Source: Clostridia bacterium (GTDB lineage: Bacteria > Bacillota > Clostridia > Oscillospirales > CAG-272). From it: 57,159 bases of DNA. The notes beneath the pieces are model-generated. The model worked only from the letters and a program-made list of their open reading frames with translations. It made no database searches and had not been told where the DNA came from. Within the stretch, counting starts at the first letter, position 1. Every line of letters begins with the position of its first letter. The DNA lies in the NCBI GenBank assembly GCA_017452895.1, contig JAFTLE010000071.1:1-57159 (forward strand). The letters run 5' to 3'. Below, one piece after another: positions 292 through 40,982 of this stretch. A program made the position numbers and the translations under genes.

Positions 292-3267
292 ATGAACGCT
301 ACGCGCCGTACCCGCTTTTACTCCGCGCTCGTCCTGTTCAGCCTGATCGGACAGATTGCGTGGGTGGTTGAGAATATGTATCTCAACGTCTTCCTTTATA
401 AAATGTTCGGGGCATCCGCCGCCGACATCTCCTATATGGTGATGGCGAGCGCGGTATCCGCCGCACTGACCACCTTTCTCGTCGGTGCGCTCTCAGACCG
501 ACTCGCGCGGCGGCGCATCTTCATCGCGGGGGGCTATATCCTCTGGGGGCTATCCATCCTCGCCTTTTCGCTTTTGCGCCTTGAACTGATCGCCGCCGTG
601 ATCCCCGCTACGGCATCTGCCGCGGCGGTCGGTGTTACACTCGTGATCGTCCTTGACTGCGTGATGACCTTCTTCGGTTCCTCTGCCAACGACGCTGCGT
701 TCAACGCCTGGCTGACTGAGGCGGTCGACAGCCGTCACCGCGGCAGGGCAGAGGGGATCAACGCAATGATGCCGTTGGTCGCAATCCTCGCCGTGTTCGG
801 CGGTTTTATGGCGTTCGACCTCGATCTGCCGCAAAGCTGGACCTATATCTTCTGCATCATCGGCGGGGTCGTGCTTGTCGTCGGTGTGCTGGGCTTCTTC
901 CTCATTGAGGATACGCCGCGAGCAGAGCGCGACGGCTATTTGCAAACCTTAGTTTACAGCTTCCGTCCCTCGACCGTCATGCGCGCACCCCGCCTCTACC
1001 TCTATCTTGCCGCCTTCGTCCTTTTCAACATTTCAATCCAGATTTTTATGCCCTACCTCATTCTTTACTATGAGGTCTCCCTCGGTATGGAGAATTACGT
1101 GCTGGTGATGGCACCCGCCATCCTTCTGGCGGCGGCGGTCACGGCGTTCTACGGCAGGGTCTACGACCGCCGCGGCTTCTCCTTCTCGATCGCCTTCTCT
1201 CTGCTTTGGCTGATGGCGGGCTATCTTTTGCTCTTTTTCACGCGCACGACGCTCCCCGTGTTTTTCGGCTCGCTTCTGATGATGTGCGGCTACCTCTCTG
1301 GCATGGCGGTCTTCGGCGCGAAAATCCGCGACCTGATTCCTGCGGGGATGGCGGGTCGTTTTCAGGGTGTGCGCATCGCGGCGCAGGTGCTTTTGCCCGG
1401 TGTAATCGGCCCCTTCATCGGTAAGACCGTTCTGCAAAACGCGAAAACGCTGCAAAACAGCGACGGCACGGTCTCCTTTATCCCGAACGCAAGCATTTTC
1501 CTCGCCGCGCTCTGTGCGGCGGCGGCACTGCTTTTATTCCTGCTTCTGATGCCGCGGCAAAAGCCGCGTACGGTCGACCTCACGACTCCCTTTGAGGGCG
1601 ATGCCGACGCATGGATGCGCGTCTATCCGCGTCCACAAATGCGGCGCGACTCCTTCGTTTCGCTCTGCGGCACGTGGCAGCTTTCGGTCAAGCGTGGGGA
1701 GCTATGCACGCCGCTCGGTGAAATCCGTGTCCCCTTCGCGCCGGAATCGCGGCTCTCCGGCATCCGGCGCACGCTGGCGCGTGGGGAGGAATGGGTCTAT
1801 GAGCGCAGCTTCACGCCCCCGCGTGAGAACGCACGCGTTCTGCTCCACTTCGGTGCCGTTGACCAGACCTGCGCGGTTTTTGTGAACCGCAAGTTAGCAG
1901 GAAAGCATGTCGGCGGCTATCTCCCCTTCTCGCTCGATATTACGCCCTACCTCACCGATGGGGAAAACCTGCTTACAGTCACGGTACGCGATCCGCTTGA
2001 TCGCAACCTTCCCTACGGCAAGCAGCGCAAAAAACGCGGCGGTATGTGGTACACGCCGATCAGCGGCATCTGGCAGCCCGTGTGGCTGGAGTCGGTGCCG
2101 CACTACCACTTCCGCTCGATGATGATCACGCCGAAGGAGGATACGATCCGCATATTCGTGAAGGGCGGCGGTGAGCAGAAGACCCTCACCCTCGGCGACG
2201 AGGTCTACACCTTTCTTGGCAATGTCGTCGAATTTACACCGCGCGTGCGCCACCTGTGGACGCCTGAGGATCCCTATCTTTACGAGTTCACCCTCACCGA
2301 CGGCACCGATACCGTGCATTCCTACTTCGCGTGGCGCACCGTCGGCACGCTAAAGTGCGGCGCACGGCAAGTGATGGCGCTCAACGGCAAGCCCTATTTC
2401 TTCCACGGTCTGCTCGATCAGGGCTACTTCCCCGACGGTATCTATACACCCGCATCCCCCGACGGCTATCTTGCCGATATCCGCCGCGCAAAGGAGCTTG
2501 GCTTCAATATGCTGCGCAAGCATATCAAGATCGAGCCCGAGCTATTTTACTACTACTGCGACAAATACGGCATCGCGCTCTTTCAGGATCTCGTCAACAG
2601 CGGCCGCTACAGCTTTCTGCTCGACACCGCCCTGCCGACCGTCGGCATCCGTCGCGGCATCCGCCATAAGGCGAGCAAGCGTCAATTCCGACAGTTCCGC
2701 ACCGACGCGCGCGCAACTCTCTACCACCTCTACAACCACCCCTCGGTCATCTCCTACACGATCTTCAACGAGGGCTGGGGTCAGCACGATGCCGACAGAT
2801 ATTACTGCGTACTCAAAAGGATTGAGAAGGTACGACCGCTTGACACCGCCTCGGGCTGGTTCAAACCAAAGCGGAGCGACTTTGAAAGCGAGCATATCTA
2901 CTTCAAAAGAATCGACCTGCGTCCGAAGACCGACCGTGCGCTTTTTCTCTCTGAGTTTGGCGGCTATTCGCTAAGGGTCGACGGACACGTCTTCAACATT
3001 GACAAGGCATACGGCTACCGCACCTACCGTGACCCCGCCGCGCTCACCGCGGGGCTTTCCTCCCTCTATCTTGACGAGGTGCTGCCACAAATTGAAAGAA
3101 ACGGTCTTTCCGCCGCGGTGCTGACCCAGCTATCCGACGTGGAGGACGAGATCAACGGCCTGCTCACCTACGACCGACAGATTGTGAAGGTCGACCGCGC
3201 AGAGCTGCAAAAGATCGCCGCCGCACTTTTCGCGGCGTTCGATGCCTACTGCAAAAAAAATATGTAA
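292..3267 (+). CDS. MFS-type permease fused to a glycoside hydrolase family 2 domain
   Basis: This is a single uninterrupted ORF. The preferred start is ATG 292 (GGAGGAG RBS) rather than the track start at 172. The N-terminal ~460 aa show a multi-TM MFS pattern. The C-terminal ~530 aa show GH2 hallmarks: LLHFGAVDQTCAVFVNRKLAGKHVGGYLPFSLDIT, NHPSVISYTIFNEGWG and LFLSEFGG. Confidence 0.8.
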   Translation: MNATRRTRFYSALVLFSLIGQIAWVVENMYLNVFLYKMFGASAADISYMVMASAVSAALTTFLVGALSDRLARRRIFIAGGYILWGLSILAFSLLRLELIAAVIPATASAAAVGVTLVIVLDCVMTFFGSSANDAAFNAWLTEAVDSRHRGRAEGINAMMPLVAILAVFGGFMAFDLDLPQSWTYIFCIIGGVVLVVGVLGFFLIEDTPRAERDGYLQTLVYSFRPSTVMRAPRLYLYLAAFVLFNISIQIFMPYLILYYEVSLGMENYVLVMAPAILLAAAVTAFYGRVYDRRGFSFSIAFSLLWLMAGYLLLFFTRTTLPVFFGSLLMMCGYLSGMAVFGAKIRDLIPAGMAGRFQGVRIAAQVLLPGVIGPFIGKTVLQNAKTLQNSDGTVSFIPNASIFLAALCAAAALLLFLLLMPRQKPRTVDLTTPFEGDADAWMRVYPRPQMRRDSFVSLCGTWQLSVKRGELCTPLGEIRVPFAPESRLSGIRRTLARGEEWVYERSFTPPRENARVLLHFGAVDQTCAVFVNRKLAGKHVGGYLPFSLDITPYLTDGENLLTVTVRDPLDRNLPYGKQRKKRGGMWYTPISGIWQPVWLESVPHYHFRSMMITPKEDTIRIFVKGGGEQKTLTLGDEVYTFLGNVVEFTPRVRHLWTPEDPYLYEFTLTDGTDTVHSYFAWRTVGTLKCGARQVMALNGKPYFFHGLLDQGYFPDGIYTPASPDGYLADIRRAKELGFNMLRKHIKIEPELFYYYCDKYGIALFQDLVNSGRYSFLLDTALPTVGIRRGIRHKASKRQFRQFRTDARATLYHLYNHPSVISYTIFNEGWGQHDADRYYCVLKRIEKVRPLDTASGWFKPKRSDFESEHIYFKRIDLRPKTDRALFLSEFGGYSLRVDGHVFNIDKAYGYRTYRDPAALTAGLSSLYLDEVLPQIERNGLSAAVLTQLSDVEDEINGLLTYDRQIVKVDRAELQKIAAALFAAFDAYCKKNM

Positions 3268-9407: not shown

Positions 9408-9414
9408 TAAATTA

Positions 9415-9482
9415 ACAAATGACTGACGGATTTGCGGAGCACCGCGAGGGAATATTTGGAATCAAGCCGACCGTCTGGGCTG
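9415..9482 (+). promoter_or_regulatory. ZTP riboswitch (pfl motif)
   Basis: Core ATGACTGACGGA (9419-9430), P2-like hairpin GCGG-AGCA-CCGC, a linker, then GCCGACCGTCTGGGC (9466-9480). GACGG (9425-9429) is complementary to CCGTC (9471-9475), which is the class-defining pseudoknot. It lies in the 5' leader of pflB, the gene the motif was named for. Confidence 0.8.
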
Positions 9483-9510
9483 TTCTGTCTTGAGAAAGGG
9501 AGAATAGAAT

Positions 9511-30522: not shown

Positions 30523-32070
30523 TTATGCCTTCCAATATTTGCGGTCAAGGCTTCTGTACTGTATCGCCTCTGCAATATGCTCCGCGCGGATGACTTCGCT
30601 TTCCGCAAGATCGGCGACCGTTCGCGCCACGCGCAAGAGGCGGTCGTGACCGCGCGCCGACAGACCGAGGTCGTCGAAGGCACGGCGAAGGATCTCCTCC
30701 GCAAGCCCGTCCATCACGCAGTGACGGCGGATCTGCGCGGGTGTCATTTGCCCGTTGCAGAAGACCCCCGTGTCCCCCGCGGCGGCAAAGCGTGCCGCGG
30801 CAAAGGCGCGTGCGCGGTTGACGCGCGCGCGGATGGTGAGAGAGGACTCGCCGCCCATCTCCCCACCGCTCATCTGATCGTAGGTCACGCGCGGAAGCTC
30901 GACCTCGATATCCATACGGTCAAGCATCGGTCCGCTGATGCGTGAAAGATAGCGTTGTACGTCGCCGGGGCGGCAGGTGCAGGTGCCTGAATCGTCGCCG
31001 AAATATCCGCACCGACAGGGGTTCATCGCGGCGACCAGCATAAAGCGGGACGGGTAGTGCACGCGCCCCGCGGCACGGGTGACCGTCACGCCACCGTCCT
31101 CAAGCGGCTGACGGAGCGACTCGATCAGCGTTTTCGGAAATTCGGGAAATTCGTCAAGGAACAGCACGCCGTTGTGCGCCAGCGAGATCTCGCCCGGGCG
31201 CGGATTGGCAGAGCCGCCGATCATTCCGACAGCGCTAACCGTGTGGTGCGGTGAGCGGAAGGGTCGCTCGCGCACGAGCTCGCCGCCCGCAAGCATTCCC
31301 GCCACCGAATGGACCTTCGTGGTTTCAAGTGCCTCCTCAAAGGTGAAGTCGGGCAGGATCGTCGGCAGACGCTTGGCAAGCATACTCTTACCCGAGCCGG
31401 GCGGTCCGATCAGAAGAATGTTGTGTCCGCCTGCGGCGGCGATCTCCATCGCGCGCTTTGCGACGGTCTGTCCGCGCACGTCGGAAAAATCCACGCTCGG
31501 ATGCGCGTTCGCTCTTAAAAAATCGCTTTTATCGTAGGTCGCGGGAATAAGCGGCTCGCCGCCGCAAAGATGCTCACACAGCCGCCGCAGACTCGGCACG
31601 CCGTAAACCGTGATGCCGTCGACCACCGCCGCCTCCTTGACGTTTGCCATCGGCACGTAGATCTCGCTTCTGCCCGATGCACGCGCCGCAAGCGTATGAC
31701 AAAGCACGCCGTCCACCGCACGCACCTGACCCGAGAGCGAAAGCTCCCCGATAAAGACGCGATGCTCGAGGGCAAGGCTCTCGGGTAGAATCCCGCCCGC
31801 CTGCATAATCGAAAGGATGATGGCAAGGTCGTAGCCCGCCCCCTCCTTTTTCCGCGCCGCGGGCGCGAGGTTGACGAGTAGCTCCTTCTGCGGAAAATTG
31901 TAGCCGCTGTTGCGGCAGGCGGTCTCAACGCGCTCCTTCGCCTCCTTCACCGCCGTATCGGGCACGCCGACCAGCTCGAAGGACGGAATGGCGTTTCGCG
32001 CACTGCACTCGACTGTCACCTCGTAGCCGTCGATGCCGAGAAGACCTGCACTGTATACCTTTGAAAGCAT
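30523..32070 (-). CDS. comM: YifB/ComM-family Mg-chelatase-like AAA+ ATPase
   Basis: MLSKVYSAGLLGIDGY, Walker A GPPGSGKSM, Walker B VLFLDEFPEF, and a C-terminal HRLLRVARTVADL region. Confidence 0.9.
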   Translation of the reverse strand: MLSKVYSAGLLGIDGYEVTVECSARNAIPSFELVGVPDTAVKEAKERVETACRNSGYNFPQKELLVNLAPAARKKEGAGYDLAIILSIMQAGGILPESLALEHRVFIGELSLSGQVRAVDGVLCHTLAARASGRSEIYVPMANVKEAAVVDGITVYGVPSLRRLCEHLCGGEPLIPATYDKSDFLRANAHPSVDFSDVRGQTVAKRAMEIAAAGGHNILLIGPPGSGKSMLAKRLPTILPDFTFEEALETTKVHSVAGMLAGGELVRERPFRSPHHTVSAVGMIGGSANPRPGEISLAHNGVLFLDEFPEFPKTLIESLRQPLEDGGVTVTRAAGRVHYPSRFMLVAAMNPCRCGYFGDDSGTCTCRPGDVQRYLSRISGPMLDRMDIEVELPRVTYDQMSGGEMGGESSLTIRARVNRARAFAAARFAAAGDTGVFCNGQMTPAQIRRHCVMDGLAEEILRRAFDDLGLSARGHDRLLRVARTVADLAESEVIRAEHIAEAIQYRSLDRKYWKA

Positions 32071-32180
32071 TGCTCTCTCCTTTTTCTCTTTTTACTTTAT
32101 TAAGGATAGCATATTTCGTGGAAAAAGTAAAGAAGGCGTAAAAAAGTTTGAATATTTTTTCATTTTTTTTGCAAAACCCC

Positions 32181-32210
32181 TTTACAAATCGGATTTTTTT
32201 GTGCTATACT
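32181..32210 (+). promoter_or_regulatory. sigma-A-like promoter of the aro supraoperon
   Basis: TTTACA (32181-32186), an 18-nt spacer, then TGcTATACT (-10 at 32205-32210). Confidence 0.5.
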
Positions 32211-32241
32211 ACTTGCATCAAGTCAGAAAAGGGAACCCGTA

Positions 32242-32331
32242 ATGAAGCAGCTTGCATCCGTATTTGCATACTTTTTCAGCTTTACCTATTATTTTGGTAA
32301 GGCTTTTTCGGCGTTCACCTGCAAGGCGTAA
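32242..32331 (+). CDS. 29-codon Phe/Tyr-rich leader peptide (candidate attenuation leader)
   Basis: ATG 32242 lies 7 nt after AGGGA. Translation MKQLASVFAYFFSFTYYFGKAFSAFTCKA has 7 Phe and 3 Tyr. TAA at 32329-32331. It sits between the promoter and the terminator, upstream of aroF. Confidence 0.55.
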   Translation: MKQLASVFAYFFSFTYYFGKAFSAFTCKA

Positions 32332-32346
32332 ATCGGTTTTTGATCG

Positions 32347-32380
32347 AGAGCCCTGCGGCGAATGCCGCGGGGCTCTTTTT
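32347..32380 (+). terminator. intrinsic terminator inside the aro leader (attenuator)
   Basis: AGAGCCCTGCGGC-GAAT-GCCGCGGGGCTCT (13 bp, one G.U pair) followed by TTTTT, about 40 nt upstream of the aroF start. Confidence 0.8.
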
Positions 32381-32419
32381 ACGCCGCTCTGTCAATTTTT
32401 CAAAAAAGAGGAATCTGTT

Positions 32420-33430
32420 ATGGTTGTCGTACTCAAGGAAAATCCCGATCGCGAGCAATTATCAAACCTTGCCGAATGGCTGGAATCGCTCGGGCTGTCC
32501 ATTCATAAAAGCGAGGGTGCGCATCACACCCTGCTCGGTCTTGTCGGTGACACGTCGCAGGTCGATATGGAGCTTTTGCGCGCGCTCGATATCGTTGACG
32601 ACGTCAAGCGCATTCAGGAGCCGTACAAGAGCGCAAACCGCAAGTTTCACCCAGCCGACACCGTCGTTGAGATCGGCGGGATCAAGCTCGGCGGCGGCAA
32701 TTTTCAATACATCGCGGGTCCCTGCTCGGTCGAATCGAAGGAGCAGATCTGCGAGGTCGCACGCAGTGTAAAGGCGGCGGGTGCCGCACTTTTGCGCGGC
32801 GGCGCATTCAAGCCGCGCACCTCGCCCTACGCCTTTCAGGGTCTGCGCGGGGACGGTATCGAGCTTTTGCTTGAGGCAAAAAAGGAAACAGGGATGCCGA
32901 TCGTCAGCGAGGCGATGGATCCCTCGCAGCTTCCGCTTTTTGAGGACGTCGACGTCATTCAGATCGGCGCGCGCAATATGCAGAACTTCGAGCTCTTGAA
33001 GGAGGTCGGACACCTGCGCAAGCCCGTGCTTCTGAAGCGCGGTCTTGCCAACACCCTGCAGGAGCTTTTGATGAGTGCCGAATATATTATGGCGGGCGGC
33101 AACGAGCAGGTCATCCTCTGTGAGCGCGGCATCCGCACCTTTGAGACGGCAACGCGCAACACCCTCGACCTCTCCGCAATCCCGGTTTTGCGCAGTATGA
33201 CGCATCTGCCGATCGTCGTCGATCCCTCGCACGCCTGCGGCATTGCCCGAATGGTTTTACCGATGGCGATGGCGGCAGCGGCCTGCGGTGCCGACGGTCT
33301 GATGATCGAGGTGCACAACGATCCGAAGCGCGCGCTTTGCGACGGCGCGCAGTCTCTCACCCCCGACGCCTTTGCCGACGTAGTAAAGCACGTCGATGCG
33401 ATCCTTCCCCACGCGTATGGCAGAGCGTAA
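32420..33430 (+). CDS. aroF: 3-deoxy-7-phosphoheptulonate (DAHP) synthase, type I-beta with an N-terminal ferredoxin-like regulatory domain
   Basis: ATG 32420 with an AAAGAGGAA RBS. The MVVVLKENPDREQL...HTLLGLVGD FL-domain is followed by the KDO8PS-like core (IAGPCSVES, LLRGGAFKPRTSPY, VVDPSH). Confidence 0.92.
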   Translation: MVVVLKENPDREQLSNLAEWLESLGLSIHKSEGAHHTLLGLVGDTSQVDMELLRALDIVDDVKRIQEPYKSANRKFHPADTVVEIGGIKLGGGNFQYIAGPCSVESKEQICEVARSVKAAGAALLRGGAFKPRTSPYAFQGLRGDGIELLLEAKKETGMPIVSEAMDPSQLPLFEDVDVIQIGARNMQNFELLKEVGHLRKPVLLKRGLANTLQELLMSAEYIMAGGNEQVILCERGIRTFETATRNTLDLSAIPVLRSMTHLPIVVDPSHACGIARMVLPMAMAAAACGADGLMIEVHNDPKRALCDGAQSLTPDAFADVVKHVDAILPHAYGRA

Positions 33431-34289
33431 GCCCGTCGTCGGGATCATCGGAATGGGCCTGATCGGCGGCAGCCTTGCGAAGGCGATTCGCAAGAACACC
33501 GCGGGAAAATACCGCGTCCTCGGTGCCGATCTCGACCCCAAAACGATGGCGAAGGCGAGGGTCGCCGACGTCATTGAGGGGGACCTGACCCCCGACGCAT
33601 ACAAGGATTGTGACTATCTTCTGATCGCGCTCTACCCCTCTGCGGTCTTATCCTTCCTTGAAGAAAACGCAGGGCTTTTCAATCCGCGCGGCGTCGTCAT
33701 CGACTGTGCGGGCATCAAGCGTGAGATCTGCGCTCTCGGTGGCGCACTCGCCGATCGCTACGGCTTCACCTTCATCGGCGGCCACCCGATGGCAGGGCGT
33801 GAGGTCTGGGGCTTTTCCGCCGCAACGAACACGCTCTTCAACGGCGCGTCAATGATCCTTTGTCCGCGTGGCGATATCGACATCCGCATCCTCGCGCATG
33901 TTAAGAATTTTTTCCTCTCGATCGGCTTTGGAAGGATTACCGTCCGCACCCCCGCCGATCACGACCGCATCATCGCCTACACCTCACAGCTCGCCCACGT
34001 GCTGTCGAGCGCCTATATCGGCAGCGCGACGGCAGAGGAGCATCGCGGCCTTTCCGCGGGCTCATTCAAGGATATGACGCGCGTTGCCACGATCAACGGC
34101 GAGATGTGGAGCGAGATTTTTCTCGCCAATCGCGAGCCGTTGCTTTCCGAAATTGACGGATTGATTGACCGCCTCTCTGCCTTCCGCGCGGGGATTGCGG
34201 AAAACGATCGCGACCTTCTCCGTCAGCTAATGAAGGACGGAAACGACCGCAAAAAGGAATGCTTCAAAAAAATTGAGGAGGAGTCCTGA
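33417..34289 (+). CDS. tyrA: prephenate dehydrogenase
   Basis: ATG 33417 overlaps the aroF end by 14 nt. VVGIIGMGLIGGSLAKAI Rossmann motif and GGHPMAGRE catalytic region. Confidence 0.88.
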   Translation: MAERKPVVGIIGMGLIGGSLAKAIRKNTAGKYRVLGADLDPKTMAKARVADVIEGDLTPDAYKDCDYLLIALYPSAVLSFLEENAGLFNPRGVVIDCAGIKREICALGGALADRYGFTFIGGHPMAGREVWGFSAATNTLFNGASMILCPRGDIDIRILAHVKNFFLSIGFGRITVRTPADHDRIIAYTSQLAHVLSSAYIGSATAEEHRGLSAGSFKDMTRVATINGEMWSEIFLANREPLLSEIDGLIDRLSAFRAGIAENDRDLLRQLMKDGNDRKKECFKKIEEES

Positions 34290-35337
34290 TGCAGATCATC
34301 AACGTTCGCACCGGCAGACCCTACACCGTAAAAATTGAAAACGGCATTCTATCCCGCGCCGCCACGCTGATTGCGGCCGGCATGGAGGGACGCCATACCG
34401 TCATCGTCACCGACGACAACGTCGCACCGCTGTATGCCGAATCGCTTCGTGCAGATCTTCAGGCGGCGGGCATCCGCGCCGATCTTTTCGTTTTCCCGCA
34501 CGGTGAGGGGCATAAGACGGTCGATACCGTCACCGCGCTTTTGTCCTTCCTTGTGGAAAAGGAGATCACGCGGCGCGACTTTCTCGTCGCCCTCGGCGGC
34601 GGCATCGTCGGGGATCTTTGCGGCTTTGCCGCCGCGATCCATCTGCGCGGCATCCCCTTCGTCGGGATCCCGACCACGTTGCTTGCTGCGGTCGACTCCT
34701 CGGTCGGCGGCAAGACGGGCGTGAATCTCAACGGACTGAAAAATCAGGTCGGTGCCTTCTGGCAGCCCTCACTCGTTTTGTGCGACCCCGAGACCTTCCG
34801 TACCCTGCCCGCCGCCGACTACGCCGACGGAATGGCAGAGGTGATCAAATACGCCATCCTCTTTGACCCTGCGCTTTACAAATCGCTCCTTGGCGACTTC
34901 GATCTGTGCGAGGTGATTGCGAAATGCGTTGACCTCAAGCGCGCGGTCGTTGAGGAGGATGAGCGCGACACGGGCCGCCGTCAGCTTCTGAACCTTGGCC
35001 ACACGGTCGGCCACGCGATCGAAAAATGCTCGGGCGGCAGTATCTCGCACGGCAAGGCGGTCGCAATGGGTACGGTGCTGGTCACCCGCGCCGCCGTTGA
35101 GCGCGGAATTTGTAAAGAAAACTTTACAGCTTCTCTGCAAAAGCTTCTTCTTTCGCACGGGCTTCCCGACGAATGTCCCTATCCGTTGACCGCCCTTTTG
35201 ACTTATATGAAAAGCGACAAAAGCGCGGCGGGGATGAGATTACGCTGGTTTTACCGCGAAAGATCGGTGATTGCATTCTCCACACGCTCCCGCTTTCCGA
35301 GCTTCCCGCACTGCTTTCGGCGGAGGATCTGCTATGA
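34289..35337 (+). pseudogene. aroB: 3-dehydroquinate synthase with a 1-nt frameshift near codon 311 (true lesion or assembly error)
   Basis: The frame from ATG 34289 is canonical AroB (GGGIVGDLCGFAAA, NLGHTVGHAIE) up to ...TYMKSDK. The canonical C-terminus KRGGDEITLVLPRKIGDCILHTLPLSELPALLSAEDLL continues one frame over, from 35221 to TGA 35335-35337. That stop overlaps the aroA ATG. The break is at the AAAA run 35219-35222. Confidence 0.85.
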
Positions 35338-36602
35338 CTGTTACCGTTTCACCCGCGCGCCCGCTTCGGGGTGCGATCAGCGCACCCGCGTCGAAATCCG
35401 ACGCGCACCGCGCAATCATCGCGGCGGCACTCGCCGACCGTACCACAAGCATTGCATTATCCGAGCTTTGCTCCGACACGCGCGCAACGCTCGACTGCCT
35501 TTCGGCAATGGGCGCGTCCTTCACGCATGCGGAGGGCGTACTGACCGTCACACCGATCGCTAAGACGGCGAAGGCTCCTCTGCTCGACGCGAACGAGAGC
35601 GGCTCGACGCTTCGCTTCCTTCTCCCCGTTGCCGCCGCGCTCGGCATCGACGCCCACGTCACGGGTCGCGGCAGACTGCCCGAGCGGCCGATCGCGCCGC
35701 TGCTTTCGGAGCTCTGCTCACACGGCGTAACCTTTGACAGCGGCCGCCTGCCGCTTTCGATGAGGGGTCGACTCACGGGGGGCGACTTCACTCTGCCGGG
35801 CGATCTTTCCTCACAGTTTATTTCGGGACTGCTCTTTGCCCTGCCCCTGACGGGTGATGCCTGTCGCATCACGGTCACGGGTAGGCTTGAAAGCGAAAAA
35901 TACGTTGAAATGACGCGCGCGCTTCTTCACCGCTACGGCGTGCATTGGGAAAAGCGCGAAAACACCTACCTGCTCGCCGCGGGTGCCGCCTACCGCAGTC
36001 CCCTTTCTTACTCGGTTGAGGGCGACTATTCGGGTGCCGCCTTCTACCTCGTTGCGGGTGCGCTCGGTGGCGATACGGAAATTTCCATTTTAGGAAAAGA
36101 CAGCCTGCAAGCCGACCGTGCGGTGCTTGACGCGCTCGTACTCGCCGGCGCGGAGGTGACCGAAAACGAAGGACGCATCCGCGTGCACGCACAAAAGCTT
36201 CGCCCCTTCACCTTTGACGTTTCGGCTTGTCCCGATATTTTTCCAATTCTGGCAATTCTCGCCGCCGCGGCGGAGGGGGAAAGCCACCTTGTCGGCGCGG
36301 CACGCCTGCGGATCAAGGAGAGCGACCGCATCGCCGCGACCGCTTCCCTTCTGCGTTCGCTCGGAGGCTCGGTCACGGAGCACCCCGACTCGCTTTCCAT
36401 TTTTGGAAACGGCAGACTCTCGGGAGGTCGCGTTGACGGCGCAAACGATCACCGCATTGTGATGAGCGCGGCGGTCGCCGCAATCCTTGCCGACGCACCC
36501 GTCGTCATTACGGATGCGGAGGCGGTCAACAAATCCTATCCCGCATTCTTCGCAGACTATCAATTGCTTGGAGGAAAAGTCGATGGAATCGAGCTTCGGT
36601 AA
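35334..36602 (+). CDS. aroA: 3-phosphoshikimate 1-carboxyvinyltransferase (EPSP synthase)
   Basis: ATG 35334 (ATGA overlap with the restored aroB stop). MTVTVSPARPLRGAISAPASKSDAHRAI, LPGDLSSQF, ESDR and DHRIVMSAAV motifs. Confidence 0.93.
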   Translation: MTVTVSPARPLRGAISAPASKSDAHRAIIAAALADRTTSIALSELCSDTRATLDCLSAMGASFTHAEGVLTVTPIAKTAKAPLLDANESGSTLRFLLPVAAALGIDAHVTGRGRLPERPIAPLLSELCSHGVTFDSGRLPLSMRGRLTGGDFTLPGDLSSQFISGLLFALPLTGDACRITVTGRLESEKYVEMTRALLHRYGVHWEKRENTYLLAAGAAYRSPLSYSVEGDYSGAAFYLVAGALGGDTEISILGKDSLQADRAVLDALVLAGAEVTENEGRIRVHAQKLRPFTFDVSACPDIFPILAILAAAAEGESHLVGAARLRIKESDRIAATASLLRSLGGSVTEHPDSLSIFGNGRLSGGRVDGANDHRIVMSAAVAAILADAPVVITDAEAVNKSYPAFFADYQLLGGKVDGIELR

Positions 36603-37656
36603 GCATATCAGGGTCACCGTGTTTGGCGAATCGCACGGCGCATGCATCGGCGGCAGGGTCGAAAACCTACCCGCGGGCATTCCGCTTGATACCGATGCGC
36701 TGATGGCGTTTATGCGCCGCCGCCAGGGGGGCGGCAAAATGACCACCCCGAGAAAGGAAGCCGACCTTCCGATCTTCACCGCGGGCATCACCAACGGCGT
36801 GACCGACGGAAGTACACTTTGCTTTACAATTGAGAATCAGAACACGCGCTCGTCCGACTACGACCGCTTCCGCGATACGCCGCGCCCCTCGCACGCCGAC
36901 TACACCGCTCTTCTCCGGTTTGGCGATGAATGCGACATCCGCGGCGGCGGCCACTTTTCGGGTCGGCTGACCGCCCCCGTCTGTGTGGCGGGCTACTTTG
37001 CCCTCGCCGCACTTGCACAGCAGGGCATCTCGGTCGGCGCGCACCTTTATTCGGTTGGCGGCGCGGCGGATGCGCCCTACGACCCCGTTGCGGTGTGCCC
37101 TGCAGATTTCCGAAATCTTGAGCATTTCCCCGCGCGCGACGCGTGCGCGGCTGAAAAAATGATGGCGGAGATCGCCGCCGCCGCGGCGGAGGGCGACTCG
37201 GTCGGCGGCATCGTCGAATGCGCCGTCACGGGGCTCCCCGCAGGGCTTGGAGATCCGCTCTACGACGGTATTGAAAACCGTCTCGCGGCAACCCTCTTCG
37301 GGCTTGGCGGGGTGCGCGGCGTTGAGTTCGGGACGGGCTTTGCCGCCGCCACAATGCGCGGTCACCTCCACAACGACCCCTTCGTGAAAAAGGACGGAAA
37401 AATTCAAACCGTCACCAACCACCACGGCGGCGTGCTCGGTGGGATCAGCAGTGGAATGCCAATCCTCTTGCGCGTTGCGTTCAAGCCGACCGCCTCGATC
37501 TCGATGCCTCAGACCACCCTTTCGTTCAAAACGGGGGAGCAGGTGACACTCTCGGTCACTGGGCGGCACGATCCCTGCATCGCGGTACGCGCCGTCCCCT
37601 GCGTGGAGGCGCAGGCGGCACTCGTTTTACTCGATTTTCTGACCGAACAACGGTAA
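36583..37656 (+). CDS. aroC: chorismate synthase
   Basis: ATG 36583 with a GGAGGAAAAG RBS, overlapping the aroA end by 20 nt. FGESHG, RPSHADY and GGHFSGR motifs. Confidence 0.93.
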   Translation: MESSFGKHIRVTVFGESHGACIGGRVENLPAGIPLDTDALMAFMRRRQGGGKMTTPRKEADLPIFTAGITNGVTDGSTLCFTIENQNTRSSDYDRFRDTPRPSHADYTALLRFGDECDIRGGGHFSGRLTAPVCVAGYFALAALAQQGISVGAHLYSVGGAADAPYDPVAVCPADFRNLEHFPARDACAAEKMMAEIAAAAAEGDSVGGIVECAVTGLPAGLGDPLYDGIENRLAATLFGLGGVRGVEFGTGFAAATMRGHLHNDPFVKKDGKIQTVTNHHGGVLGGISSGMPILLRVAFKPTASISMPQTTLSFKTGEQVTLSVTGRHDPCIAVRAVPCVEAQAALVLLDFLTEQR

Positions 37657-37671
37657 AAAAGGATAAGAGCT

Positions 37672-38811
37672 ATGGATTTGAAGGAAGCAAGACAAGAGAT
37701 CGACGGCATCAATCAATCGATCCTCGATCTTTTCAAGAGACGGATGGAGGCAGTCCGCGCGGTCGCAGAGGAAAAAAAGAGGACAGGCACGCCGATCTTT
37801 AACGGGCAACGGGAGCGTGAGATCCTCGCCGATGTCGCAGAGGCGGCGGGTGAGGAGCTTGAGACCTACGCCAAGATCCTCTTTCAGACGCTGATGGATG
37901 TTTCGCGCTCCTATCAGACGCGTCTGCTTGACCGTCAGGGCAGTATTTCCCTGAAGATCAAGGAGGCGGTCGCCGCCACCCCCGCGATCTTCCCGAACAA
38001 GGGAACGGTTGCCTGCCAGGGGGTCGAGGGCGCGTATTCACAGATCGCCGCAGACCGACTCTTCGGATTGCAGAAGATCCTCTACTTCAAGGATTTTGAG
38101 GGCGTGTTTGCCGCTGTGCAGAGCGGACTTTGCAGCTACGGCGTTCTGCCGATCGAGAACAGCACCTACGGCACGGTCAACGAGGTCTACGATCTGATGC
38201 AAAAGCACCGCTTTAGCATCGTTCGCTCCCTAAAGCTACGCATCGACCACAAGCTCTTAACGAAGCCCGGCGTCAATCTGTCCGAGGTCACCGAGGTCTT
38301 CTCACACGCACAGGCGATCGGTCAGTGTGCGCGCTTCCTTGCGGAGCATCCGAGCATCAAGGTCACGGTTTGTGAGAACACCGCCGTCGCCGCGAAGCGA
38401 GTTGCCGACTCGGACCGCCGCGACGTCGCCGCGATCGCCTCGGCATCCTGCGCGCGCCTTTACGGGCTTTCGCCGCTGTCCGTCCACGTGGCGAACAACG
38501 ACGGAAATTACACGCGCTTCATCTGCATCTCGAAGGAGGGACAGATCTTCTCGGGCGCCGACCGCATCAGCCTGACCGTCACCGTACCGAACACCCCGGG
38601 CTCGCTCTACTACCTGCTCGCCAAGTTCTGTGCGGAGGGCTTCAACCTGACGAAGCTTGAAAACCGACCGATCGAGGGCAGTGACTTCGACGTGCGCTTC
38701 TACTTTGATTTCGAGGCGCCCGTACTGTCCGACCGCGCGCTGGCACTGCTTGACGATCTGGAAGCATCGTGTGAGACCTTCACCTTCCTCGGCGGATATA
38801 CGGAGGTATAA
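37672..38811 (+). CDS. pheA: bifunctional chorismate mutase / prephenate dehydratase with a C-terminal ACT domain
   Basis: N-terminal CM_2 wording (EIDGINQSILDLFKRRMEAVRAVAEEK), PDT core (VACQGVEGAYSQIAA, ENSTYGTV, TRF) and an ACT-like tail. Confidence 0.9.
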   Translation: MDLKEARQEIDGINQSILDLFKRRMEAVRAVAEEKKRTGTPIFNGQREREILADVAEAAGEELETYAKILFQTLMDVSRSYQTRLLDRQGSISLKIKEAVAATPAIFPNKGTVACQGVEGAYSQIAADRLFGLQKILYFKDFEGVFAAVQSGLCSYGVLPIENSTYGTVNEVYDLMQKHRFSIVRSLKLRIDHKLLTKPGVNLSEVTEVFSHAQAIGQCARFLAEHPSIKVTVCENTAVAAKRVADSDRRDVAAIASASCARLYGLSPLSVHVANNDGNYTRFICISKEGQIFSGADRISLTVTVPNTPGSLYYLLAKFCAEGFNLTKLENRPIEGSDFDVRFYFDFEAPVLSDRALALLDDLEASCETFTFLGGYTEV

Positions 38812-40053
38812 ATGTTCTATCTGATCGGAAAAAGCCTCGCGCACAGCTATTCGGCGGAGATCCACCGCGCCTTCGGCCGCTACGATTACGCCCTGCAAAA
38901 TCTGCCGCCGGAGGCGGTCGGTGACTTCCTTAAGCACGGCGAGTGGGAGGGACTCAATGTCACCATCCCCTACAAGCAGACCGTGCTCCCCTTCCTTGAC
39001 GAGATCAGCGAGGAGGCAAAAAGCATTGGCAGCGTTAACACGATCGTCCGTAGCGGCGACCGCCTTGTCGGTCACAACACCGACTATCTCGGCTTTTTCG
39101 CTATGGCGTACCGCGCGGGCATTCTCTTCGGCGGGCGAAAGGTCGTCATCCTCGGCAGCGGCGGCACCTGTCTGACCGCATCCGCCGTCGCACGCGACTG
39201 CGGTGCGCGTGAGATCGTCGTGATCTCGCGCACGGGGGAGAACACCTACGATACGCTCCCGCGGCATTACGATGCCGAGATCCTCATCAATACCACCCCC
39301 GTTGGGATGTACCCAAGCAACGGCGCGTCGGCTATATCGCTTACGCCCTTTCAAAGGCTCGTCGGCGTGATCGACGTGATCTACAATCCGCTGGAGACCC
39401 CGATCCTTCGGGAGGCGCGTCTGCGCGGGATCGCTTCGACGGGCGGTCTTTATATGCTCGTCGCACAGGCGGCGGTCGCTGCGGGTCATTTCTGCGGGGA
39501 CAAGCCCGAGAAGGCAGAGATCGACGCCGTCTACAAAAGCATCCTGCAGCAGAAGGCCAACATCGTCCTGCTCGGTATGCCCGGCGTCGGCAAAAGCACC
39601 GTCGCACGCGCGCTCGCGGCAAAAACGGGGCGCGAGATCCTCGACACCGACCAAATGATCGAGACACGCGCGGGGATGGCGATTCCCGAGATCTTCAAAA
39701 CGGTGGGGGAAGCGAAATTCCGCGACCTTGAATGCGAGGCGATCGCCGAGGCAGGCAAGCAAAGCGGAAAGATCATCGCCACGGGCGGCGGTGCCGTCCT
39801 GCGGGAGGAAAACCTTAACCCCCTGACGCAAAACGGGCGGCTCTACTTCCTTCTGCGCCCGCTTGACACGCTCGCGCGGGATAATCGACCGCTCTCGCAA
39901 AACGCAGACCTTGCCCAAATGTATCAGACGCGCTTGCCGCTTTACTTAAAATTCTCCGACGCAACGGTGGAAAACAAGGACCCCGACACCTGCGCCGACG
40001 AAATTTTGGAGGAATTCTGTGAAAATATTGGTTATAAACGGTCCAAACCTTAA
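38812..40053 (+). CDS. aroE: fused shikimate dehydrogenase / shikimate kinase
   Basis: The AroE part has NVTIPYKQ, NTDYLGF and GSGGT. The AroK part, from about residue 245, has IVLLGMPGVGKSTVARALA and ATGGGAV. The ATG immediately follows the pheA stop. Confidence 0.88.
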   Translation: MFYLIGKSLAHSYSAEIHRAFGRYDYALQNLPPEAVGDFLKHGEWEGLNVTIPYKQTVLPFLDEISEEAKSIGSVNTIVRSGDRLVGHNTDYLGFFAMAYRAGILFGGRKVVILGSGGTCLTASAVARDCGAREIVVISRTGENTYDTLPRHYDAEILINTTPVGMYPSNGASAISLTPFQRLVGVIDVIYNPLETPILREARLRGIASTGGLYMLVAQAAVAAGHFCGDKPEKAEIDAVYKSILQQKANIVLLGMPGVGKSTVARALAAKTGREILDTDQMIETRAGMAIPEIFKTVGEAKFRDLECEAIAEAGKQSGKIIATGGGAVLREENLNPLTQNGRLYFLLRPLDTLARDNRPLSQNADLAQMYQTRLPLYLKFSDATVENKDPDTCADEILEEFCENIGYKRSKP

Positions 40054-40453
40054 TCTGCTCGGTATTCGCGAGCCGAGCATCTACGGCAGCGCGACCTACG
40101 CCGACCTTTGCGCGCGCATAAAGGAAAAATGCGATGCGGAGGGCATCGCGGTCTCCTTCGTCCAGTCGAATCACGAGGGCGAGCTTGTCGACGCCATCCA
40201 GTCCACCTACGGAGCCTGCGACGGCATCGTGATCAACCCGGGTGCCTACACGCACACGAGCATCGCGCTGCTTGACGCGGTCAAGGCGGTCGGCACGCCG
40301 ACCGTTGAGGTCCATATCTCCGACCTCGCCGCGCGTGAGGCGTTCCGTCAGATCTCCTATGTCCGCGCCGCTTGTATCGGCACGATCGCAGGCCGCGGCT
40401 TTGACGGCTACCTCGATGCCATCGACCTTTTGAAGCTGCACCTGCAAAAATAA
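40019..40453 (+). CDS. aroQ: type II 3-dehydroquinate dehydratase
   Basis: GTG 40019 lies 7 nt after GGAGG and overlaps the aroE/K end by 35 nt. KILVINGPNLNLLGIREPSIYG, SNHEGEL and INPGAYTHTS motifs. Confidence 0.92.
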   Translation: MKILVINGPNLNLLGIREPSIYGSATYADLCARIKEKCDAEGIAVSFVQSNHEGELVDAIQSTYGACDGIVINPGAYTHTSIALLDAVKAVGTPTVEVHISDLAAREAFRQISYVRAACIGTIAGRGFDGYLDAIDLLKLHLQK

Positions 40454-40456
40454 CAA

Positions 40457-40483
40457 AAAAGCACCCTTCGGGGTGCTTTTTTC
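40457..40483 (+). terminator. intrinsic terminator of the aro supraoperon
   Basis: AAAAAAGCACCC-TTCG-GGGTGCTTTTTT. Confidence 0.8.
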
Positions 40484-40613
40484 TTTGGTGGGCTAACTCC
40501 AGAGCTATCCAAACCGATGTAGCTTTCACTTTTTAACTCTTCACTATTACCTATTACTTCAAAATTCTCGGGAGCAATTCCGTTGAAAAGTGAAGAGTGA
40601 AGAGGTAATAAGT

Positions 40614-40690: not shown

Positions 40691-40866
40691 CTCCTTGCGA
40701 GCCCCGTCTGTGACGGCAGTGCTTTGCACCTTGCATCGCTTTGCGATGCGCTCACGGAGCAATCTGCACTCGCTCGCTTGAACGCGGGCATTCAGACTCG
40801 CTTCGTTTGATTATGTAGCCTCCGGCTCAAACCGATCGATCGGATCCCAGCTCAACTCGCGAAAAG

Positions 40867-40911
40867 CCACCAAAGAAAAAAGCACCCCGCGGGTGCTTTT
40901 TTCTTTGGTGG
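40867..40911. terminator. 45-bp palindrome/terminator immediately 3' of the intact tRNA
   Basis: CCACCAAAGAAAAAAGCACCC-CGC-GGGTGCTTTTTTCTTTGGTGG with 21-bp perfect arms. The right arm includes the tRNA CCACCA end. The core resembles the aroQ terminator. Confidence 0.8.
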
Positions 40912-40982
40912 GCCATCAGGGACTCGAACCCCGGACCGACCGGTTATGAGCCGGTTGCTCTAACCAGCTGAGCTAGTGGCCC
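40906..40982 (-). tRNA. tRNA with anticodon CAT (elongator Met, or Ile2 after lysidine modification), CCA encoded
   Basis: The minus strand GGGCCAC-TA-GCTC-AGCTGGTTA-GAGC-A-ACCGG-CTCATAA-CCGGT-CGGTC-CGGGG-TTCGAGT-CCCTG-ATGGCCC-ACCA folds as a 77-nt cloverleaf. It is not an initiator type (G1-C72 pair, no GGG/CCC anticodon stem). Confidence 0.93.

Follow-up and report, generated by a model that had tools for sequence, protein, structure and literature searches.

The aroR leader peptide of Corynebacterium glutamicum, which carries Phe-Tyr-Phe, controls aroF (Neshat et al. 2014, as summarised in PMC11802643). The motif uORFC-13-1 is known solely upstream of aroF and consists of promoter elements, a ribosome-binding site, a start codon, a Phe-coding U-run and an adjoining intrinsic terminator, for which attenuation via the speed of Phe incorporation was proposed; the 24 sequences on which its description is based come from Acholeplasma and from unassigned environmental DNA, and the number of Phe codons is given as 'at least one' (Brewer et al. 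2021, PMC8632094). Among Firmicutes, His leader peptides have been predicted in the Bacillus cereus group, Peptostreptococcaceae and Erysipelotrichales, and a Leu-rich ilv-leu attenuator peptide of Staphylococcus aureus is reported to repress branched-chain amino-acid synthesis. The usual split in attenuators is described as T-box versus leader-peptide. RNA sequencing of Clostridioides difficile detected premature termination upstream of aroF, with no mechanism named (PMC8237595). No published Phe/Tyr leader in Clostridia was found in the literature searched, absence there being no proof. The present work concerns a stretch of 57,159 nucleotides (nt) from a Clostridia bacterium (contig JAFTLE010000071.1), called the window when its full length is meant, and within it the leader region of an operon for aromatic amino-acid synthesis that begins with aroF (the aro operon).

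On the evidence of its sequence and of related sequences, this leader region very probably acts as a classical leader-peptide (ribosome-mediated) transcription attenuator that tunes the aro operon to charged tRNA-Phe and tRNA-Tyr. The parts that define it in the window are as follows.

32181-32210, forward strand: sigma-70-type promoter-like site, -35 TTTACA, 18-nt spacer, TG-extended -10 TATACT, 10/12 matches
32229-32239, forward strand: Shine-Dalgarno (SD) region AAGGGAACCCG, with AGGGA at 32230-32234, 7 nt before the ATG
32242-32331, forward strand: leader open reading frame (ORF), ATG at 32242, TAA at 32329-32331, 29 sense codons, product MKQLASVFAYFFSFTYYFGKAFSAFTCKA
32263-32295, forward strand: regulatory run FAYFFSFTYYF, codons 8-18, 8 of 11 residues aromatic, the proposed zone of ribosome stalling
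32346-32380, forward strand: intrinsic terminator (attenuator), 14-bp stem 32346-32359/32364-32377, then the U-tract 32376-32380

An earlier interpretation made from the letters of the window (the sequence-only reading) had described the leader ORF with its length, SD spacing and aromatic run, and a composition of 7 Phe, 3 Tyr and zero Trp; the sequence agrees with it in each of these respects. The aromatic codons of the run are, in order, UUU, UAC, UUU, UUC, UUU, UAU, UAU and UUU. No other short ORF with at least 6 Phe or Tyr (F/Y) residues in 11 is found on either strand of the 57-kb window. Gene callers miss the leader, no gene being called there in three contigs. The exact-protein look-up returned three contigs with a leader identical to that of the window, which are uninformative for covariation, and the same intergenic sequence recurs with 100% identity in three metagenome assemblies made independently.

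The promoter-like site, which had been judged good, ranks as the second-best match in 12 kb, and transcription presumably starts near 32217. A second promoter-like match (TTTGCA, 18 nt, TATTAT; 9/12) lies within the F/Y run at 32263-32292 of the forward strand; the T/A-rich codons for Phe and Tyr are its most likely cause, and a transcript from it would also have to cross the terminator. The GC-rich hairpin followed by TTTTT that had been noticed behind the leader is confirmed at 32346-32377, with 14 pairs including one G-U, a GAAU loop and then T5 (32376-32380). It folds at -29.9 kcal/mol (z = -6.3), none of 200 shuffles folding as well, and ranks in the top three hairpin-plus-T-run sites on the forward strand of the window; on the reverse strand it is without a T-tail. 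The standard terminator scan missed this hairpin, in our reading because the stem, once it is extended into the T-run, leaves a tail of just 4 T, and a separately written hairpin-plus-T-run scan recovers it. The upstream gene (30523-32070) lies on the opposite strand and is divergent, so there is no other gene for the hairpin to terminate. No promoter-like site was found in 32381-32419, the gap from the terminator to aroF, and aroF is therefore transcribed through the hairpin.

What lies behind the terminator agrees with the codon content of the leader.

32420-40453, forward strand: controlled operon with aroF, tyrA, aroB (frameshifted), aroA, aroC, pheA (chorismate mutase-prephenate dehydratase, CM-PDT), an aroE-aroK fusion and aroQ, according to Pfam and the ORF list

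Pfam places aroF at 32420-33430, identifies pheA as chorismate mutase plus prephenate dehydratase, and ends aroQ at 40453; no trp genes occur among the Pfam assignments of the operon ORFs. The claim of an operon with the Phe and Tyr branch enzymes and without trp genes is thus borne out, and since the operon makes Phe and Tyr, not Trp, the logic of a mixed attenuator fits.

Two sets of relatives were compared. The genome set consisted of 80 aroF loci on one-genome-per-species contigs with 65-77% protein identity, from Oscillospiraceae, Acutalibacteraceae, Lachnospiraceae, Christensenellales, Anaerovoracaceae and other Clostridia, and the metagenome set of a further 80 aroF loci; the closest aroF relatives reached at most 77% identity in the genome scan and 75% in the metagenome scan. 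When leaders were counted as short ORFs within 300 nt upstream of aroF with at least 6/11 F/Y, a sense-strand leader was present at 62/77 genome loci (antisense 1/77, shuffled 0/77) and at 53/73 metagenome loci (antisense 0/73). A hairpin of -9 kcal/mol or stronger followed by a T-run stands between the leader stop codon and aroF in 59 of 64 leaders, these being the window and 63 genome loci with a long enough upstream region and an ORF of at least 6/11 F/Y. The sequence-only reading had named conservation in orthologous leaders beforehand as the test of a ribosome-mediated Phe/Tyr attenuator, and its outcome supports that reading: the orthologous leaders carry both the aromatic-run ORF and a terminator with compensatory changes.

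All 51 leaders that were aligned have both F and Y, with totals of 248 F, 208 Y and 3 W. The run might instead be understood as a triplet-repeat RNA site (UAY/UUY) for a trans-acting, aromatic-sensing factor that, in the manner of TRAP, turns the antiterminator into the terminator independently of translation. TRAP acts on (G/U)AG repeats. It is true that the run forms a periodic array of U-rich triplets beside conserved alternative helices, and that Firmicutes often use protein- or RNA-sensed attenuators. A protein site, however, would not need a start codon, and one is aligned in 51/51 leaders (ATG in 47); nor would it need an open frame, and the start codon and the longest U[AU]Y triplet run are a whole number of codons apart in 51/51, the spacing taking ten different values between 15 and 51 nt. 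F and Y codons moreover interchange freely while the frame is kept. The operon neighbour on the other strand is, by Pfam, a YifB/Mg-chelatase-like ATPase, and no regulator gene was seen, none having been specifically looked for. We consider such a factor-binding switch extremely unlikely.

The same leaders bear on the function of the peptide. Its length varies from 14 to 41 residues, and the stop codon falls before a conserved RNA segment, named B below, in 16 leaders, inside it in 10 and after it in 25, while the nucleotide sequences of B and of the 3' arm of a hairpin, P1, are kept, translated or not. Because this conservation holds regardless of translation, the peptide motifs 'SFT...GKA' and 'FAAE/FAAK' are shadows of RNA helices. 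The ORF would then presumably be translated yet not yield a functional peptide, only the F/Y run being conserved at the protein level. These observations sit poorly with the idea that the product of the ORF is a hydrophobic micro-protein with a function and a terminator of its own, the aromatic residues serving membrane insertion and not sensing, and that the aro operon is expressed through constitutive leakage past that terminator. In favour of it are the hydrophobic, aromatic nature of the peptide and the great strength of the terminator, and some leader peptides do act in trans, for example peTrpL; nevertheless the ORF is always directly upstream of aroF, and a micro-protein gives no role to the conserved pairing with the terminator. 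Of the alternatives treated here it is the one we hold to be least probable.

About one fifth of the aroF loci are without an F/Y leader (L012, L022, L034, L035, L039, L046, L069 and L077; region upstream of aroF at about 2700-3000). Upstream of aroF at these loci Rfam shows no T-box or other known leader; in L077 a T-box lies 2.3 kb downstream of the aroF start. Genes for AroF with 68-72% identity to that of the window also occur in metagenome-assembled genomes labelled Victivallales/Thermoguttaceae (L044, L049, L053, L079) and Spirochaetia (L012, L039). Among these non-Firmicute-labelled bins, an F/Y-rich leader ORF is present in L044, with weaker ones (5/11) in L049 and L053, which suggests either mis-binning or horizontal transfer of the operon with its leader.

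The leaders share more than an ORF and a terminator. Across the family the order of parts is SD and start codon, segment A, F/Y run, hairpin P1, segment B, a variable spacer and the terminator, and the corresponding parts of the window that have not been listed above are these.

32251-32256, forward strand: candidate segment 1 (A), CUUGCA, with its complement UGCAAG at 32320-32325; the A:B helix of the family survives here as a weak remnant
32278-32304, forward strand: hairpin P1, AGCUUUACC (32278-32286) with GGUAAGGCU (32296-32304), 9-nt loop, then U5 (32304-32308)
32313-32327, forward strand: segment 2 (B), GUUCACCUGCAAGGC, made up of the final five sense codons and separated from the stop codon by 1 nt
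32346-32363, forward strand: segment 3, the terminator left arm plus the GAAU loop, whose partner is either B or segment 4

The family consensus is UUUGCAGCUGAAU for segment A, which ends at the first codon of the run, ACUUUAYC...GRUAAGGY for P1, with the 5' arm made of run codons, UUUGCUGCAAA for B, and CCGCAGUGAAA for the terminator left arm and loop. A covariance model, R1, was built from 20 long-form leaders with a structure containing P1 and the terminator only. It finds one match per locus, on the sense strand and upstream of aroF, in 51 genome and 48 metagenome loci; the window scores 101 bits, a match by construction since the window is among the 20 model-building sequences.

P1 appears in the RNAalifold consensus. 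In the 51 genome sequences 95% of its cells (one base pair in one sequence) are paired and 7/8 pairs show compensatory changes; for the terminator the figures are 95% and 12/12 pairs. The two helices together have 95.4% of their cells paired and 223 cells with double changes, compared with 36-49% in slid controls and 0/500 shuffles as good, in an alignment that leans towards these two helices because the model was fitted to them. The remaining pairings are not in the model. B pairs with the terminator left arm and loop (B:3) in 75.1% of cells in the genome set (slid controls 31-50%, shuffles 10/500) and in 76.5% in the metagenome set (slid controls 26-47%, shuffles 0/500), and A pairs with B in 63.1% (slid controls 33-47%, shuffles 0/500). 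Examples of compensated pairing are GGGUUUUGCUGC with GCAGUGAAACUC (L023), GGGUUUCACCG with CGGUGAAAUCUC (L003), GUAUUUUGCU with AGGCAAAAUAC (L018) and CCGGCUG with CAGCCGG (L013).

The sequence-only reading had paired the last sense codons, ACCUGCAAGGC, with the right arm of the terminator. That pairing reaches -13.3 kcal/mol in the window, and across the 51 relatives it fills 38.2% of cells, within the slid controls (28-63%) and equalled by 128/500 shuffles, so that it is no better than the controls; the conserved partner of segment 32313-32327 is instead the terminator left arm and loop. A second proposed pairing, GGCUUUU with AGAGCC, amounts to -12.4 kcal/mol and was evaluated in the window only; its left strand had been placed at 32302-32308 and actually lies at 32301-32307.

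An alignment-free comparison of RNAduplex energies with dinucleotide shuffles of the middle segment gave mean z values of -1.77 for B:3 and -1.62 for A:B over 59 loci, and the same stretch of B serves both pairings in 57/59 loci. A strict fixed-diagonal scan of the MAFFT alignment gave no B:3 or A:B helix at 70% or more, owing to gaps and register shifts, the pairing having emerged on per-sequence duplexes and on the model-guided alignment. As predicted from these sequences, the layout of the family is the classical 1:2 / 2:3 / 3:4 one.

A further sub-type of leader, its short ORF exemplified by MKSIFVFAYYYYFTMDS, was seen in L110, L111, L114, L115, L117 and L122 and in the further loci L123, L127, L132, L134 and L143 (about 500-660 in each). 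Its B is UUUGUGAUGC and its terminator GAUGCGGCACAGG...CCUGUGCCGCAU; the partner of this B seems to be the 5' half of the left arm and not the loop side.

In the window itself the strongest parts are P1 and the terminator, while the antiterminator and the 1:2 pairing have diverged and are weaker. P1 has -11.7 kcal/mol, its 5' arm and loop consist of F/Y-run codons, and we propose that it serves as a pause or synchronising hairpin. Segment B of the window, homologous to the family B, is the proposed 5' strand of the antiterminator, partly on the basis of folds with masked ribosome positions. If a ribosome is masked at the run codons before the right arm has been transcribed, the RNAfold structure joins B (32313-32327) to GCCCUGCGGCGAAU (32350-32363) through GUUC:GAAU, CC:GG, GCA:UGC and GGC:GCC; with the mask at the stop codon instead, the terminator left arm stays free. 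The resulting antiterminator hairpin (32313-32363) has 12 pairs in a shifted register and -18.3 kcal/mol. A 1:2 pairing in the window would be either the 6-bp helix CUUGCA:UGCAAG or, alternatively, B with the SD region: in the untranslated RNA 32229-32239 can pair with 32310-32321 (RNAduplex -12.7 kcal/mol), a pairing present in the minimum free energy (MFE) fold and known from the window alone. The leader nearest by sequence, L085 (...FGKAFSAFTANKK), has a clean 9-bp antiterminator, GUUCACUGC with GCAGUGAGU.

The stretch GGCGUAAA (32325-32332), lying over the leader stop codon, is complementary to UUUACGCC (32378-32385), which comprises the U-tract and the 3' flank of the terminator. The MFE fold of the full-length leader contains this helix, with the terminator hairpin inside it; the helix could stabilise the terminated leader RNA and cannot act before the termination decision.

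From these parts, their conservation and their complementarities we infer how stalling, pausing, kinetics and a response to Phe and Tyr might be joined. Transcription would start near 32217, with the only route to aroF running through the terminator at 32346-32380. RNA polymerase is probably paused by P1 and its U-tract until a ribosome, in the course of translating the 29-codon leader, reaches the run, opens P1 and lets the polymerase proceed. Footprint sizes of the ribosome as generally known are used here. If Phe-tRNA or Tyr-tRNA is scarce, the ribosome would stall within 32263-32295, its footprint ending before 32310 and leaving B free; free B would capture the emerging left arm and loop (32346-32363), the terminator would be blocked, and the polymerase would read into aroF. 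If both tRNAs are charged, the ribosome would reach the stop codon at 32329-32331, 1 nt after B, and cover B, so that the terminator would form and termination near 32380 would leave a leader RNA of about 165 nt. Without translation, B would be held by upstream sequence, segment A or, in the window, the SD region, and termination would follow.

Several findings weigh against an attenuator working in this way. The support for B:3 is partly conserved complementarity and not covariation, the genome-set shuffles reaching 72.8% against the 75.1% observed. The alternative pairings of the window are no better than those of shuffles (z = +0.2 for B:3 and -1.1 for A:B); their credibility comes from homology with the family. 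At the consensus antiterminator columns the window forms only 5/9 pairs (UUC:GAA, CC:GG), the rest lying in the shifted register, and the A:B helix is cut to 6 bp. The terminator (-29.9 kcal/mol) is far more stable than the antiterminator (-18.3 kcal/mol), and with the right arm following directly after segment 3, read-through depends on kinetics. The U-tract is short (5 U), and a ribosome stalled at the Phe codons F22 or F25 would sit over B, favouring termination. Finally, Bacillus subtilis is reported to uncouple transcription from translation, which would disfavour the mechanism if true here; a study of C. difficile argues that uncoupling of the B. subtilis type does not hold in that clostridial species (PMC8237595).

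The non-significant z-scores of the window, its 5/9 consensus pairs and its 6 bp of A:B would also suit a decayed relic, in which the family is a real attenuator and the copy in the window, through its weakened A:B and B:3 pairings and its unusually strong terminator, is a fixed partial terminator, a constitutive damper unresponsive to Phe and Tyr. The frameshift in aroB could likewise mean a decaying pathway, or an assembly error. Against decay, the start codon, the SD region, the 8/11 run, P1 and the terminator are all intact, the region is identical in three independent metagenomes, and a 12-pair antiterminator of -18.3 kcal/mol still forms, in precisely the place that a ribosome on the stop codon would obstruct. 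We regard a relic as very unlikely.

As to the surroundings, the ORF list contains a 392-residue ORF (32252-33430) across the leader, which shares the frame of aroF and not that of the leader. As had been suspected, it is spurious upstream of 32420: as a gene start it was rejected, the DAHP_snth_FXD profile beginning at residue 1 of the 32420 start and the homologues aligning from that residue, and it is merely an in-frame upstream extension of aroF. The aroB ORF (34289-35563) is apparently frameshifted, with the shift near 35213-35235. Its C-terminal Pfam domain ends at residue 311 and is followed by 113 odd, Arg/Cys-rich residues running into aroA, while a normal AroB C-terminus (...GDEITLVLPRKIGDCILHTLPLSELPALLSAEDLL*) is found in another frame, ending at a TGA that overlaps the aroA ATG at 35331; either the assembly is wrong here or aroB is a real pseudogene. 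The operon ends at a bidirectional, terminator-like hairpin (40452-40485). Just past it lies a tRNA-Met (CAT) gene at 40906-40982 on the reverse strand, flanked by very strong hairpins, one of which (40865-40914, reverse strand) has -36.0 kcal/mol. A ZMP/ZTP riboswitch aptamer is located at 9409-9487 on the forward strand (47.9 bits, Rfam gathering score 39).

Searches with known RNA families left the element unassigned. Over the window, Rfam 15 at gathering score matched only a tRNA and the ZTP riboswitch, both elsewhere, and when the E value was relaxed to 10 over 32050-32480 neither Phe_leader nor the T-box (RF00230) matched the element, the T-box having no match anywhere in that interval. 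The sole match of Phe_leader (RF01859) had 20.3 bits, compared with a gathering score of 55, and lies at 32064-32163, upstream of the promoter and outside the transcript. Sub-threshold matches within the leader were rejected as hairpin-only look-alikes, for example BSnc120 on the reverse strand with 29 of 114 bits. The leaders of 20 related loci likewise matched no Rfam family and no T-box, in line with the statement that no T-box or other known leader is present, and uORFC-13-1 is not in Rfam 15. The suggestion of novelty was somewhat overstated: leader-peptide attenuators have already been predicted or shown in some Firmicutes, and the Phe-codon upstream ORF of Acholeplasma aroF has been published.

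A wider interpretation is tentative, and we are inclined to doubt it more than to accept it: a single ancient RNA family, conserved in sequence and absent from Rfam, may control the aromatic supraoperon in most clostridial orders, many gut Oscillospiraceae, Lachnospiraceae and Christensenellales being among its carriers, with P1 and its U-tract acting as a ribosome-released pause that enforces synchrony of transcription and translation. If so, the Firmicutes involved would rely on coupled transcription and translation, unlike the 'runaway transcription' model of B. subtilis, and one mixed codon run would integrate two amino acids, Phe and Tyr. The breadth across Clostridia, the mixed Phe/Tyr sensing and the implication for coupling are what make the element of interest. 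Confirmation would give about 100 Clostridia, many of them gut commensals, a defined regulator of aromatic synthesis where none is catalogued, in a pathway that feeds host-relevant aromatic metabolites. The phylum, whose model organism is described as uncoupling the two processes, would gain a widespread leader peptide that senses amino acids, and transcription-translation coupling in Clostridia would be directly testable at this one small locus. The covariance model is ready for annotating leaders that gene callers miss, and for metabolic engineering the removal of 32242-32380 should de-attenuate the entire shikimate, Phe and Tyr operon.

Compared with known systems, the element is, as far as its sequence can place it, an uncatalogued, conserved member of the classical leader-peptide attenuator class and not a new kind of mechanism. 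Its closest analogues are aroR-aroF of C. glutamicum, pheL of Escherichia coli and the uORFC-13-1 candidate of Acholeplasma. The T-box (RF00230), the usual sensor for aromatic amino acids and aminoacyl-tRNA in Firmicutes, likewise senses tRNA charging and chooses between terminator and antiterminator in a 5' leader, but it senses uncharged tRNA directly and without translation. The His and Leu leader attenuators of Firmicutes belong to the same mechanism class and the same phylum, so that ribosome-sensed attenuation is not excluded there; they serve other amino acids and operons, have a narrow taxonomic spread and are unrelated in sequence. With the enterobacterial pheL-pheA and pheM-pheST leaders (RF01859) the clostridial family shares a short aromatic-codon ORF, a terminator before the biosynthetic gene and, as predicted for it, the 1:2/2:3/3:4 pairings, a likeness of logic and not of sequence. 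Those leaders have Phe codons only and control a single gene, whereas in the family described here Phe and Tyr occur in roughly equal numbers and the run contains a further conserved hairpin, P1. The parts and position of uORFC-13-1 (an upstream ORF, a Phe U-run and a terminator upstream of aroF), compared by its published description, match those of the window, and uORFC-13-1 and the clostridial leader may be the same RNA family. The closest analogue with experimental tests is aroR of C. glutamicum: a leader with Phe and Tyr codons stands directly upstream of a DAHP-synthase (3-deoxy-D-arabino-heptulosonate 7-phosphate synthase) operon, and stalling raises read-through, as tested under Phe limitation. 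It differs in belonging to Actinobacteria, in having three regulatory codons as opposed to a run of 8-11 here, and in that Tyr supply was reported to be without effect (PMC11802643). The operon behind the clostridial leader, by comparison, is a complete shikimate supraoperon with pheA and tyrA.

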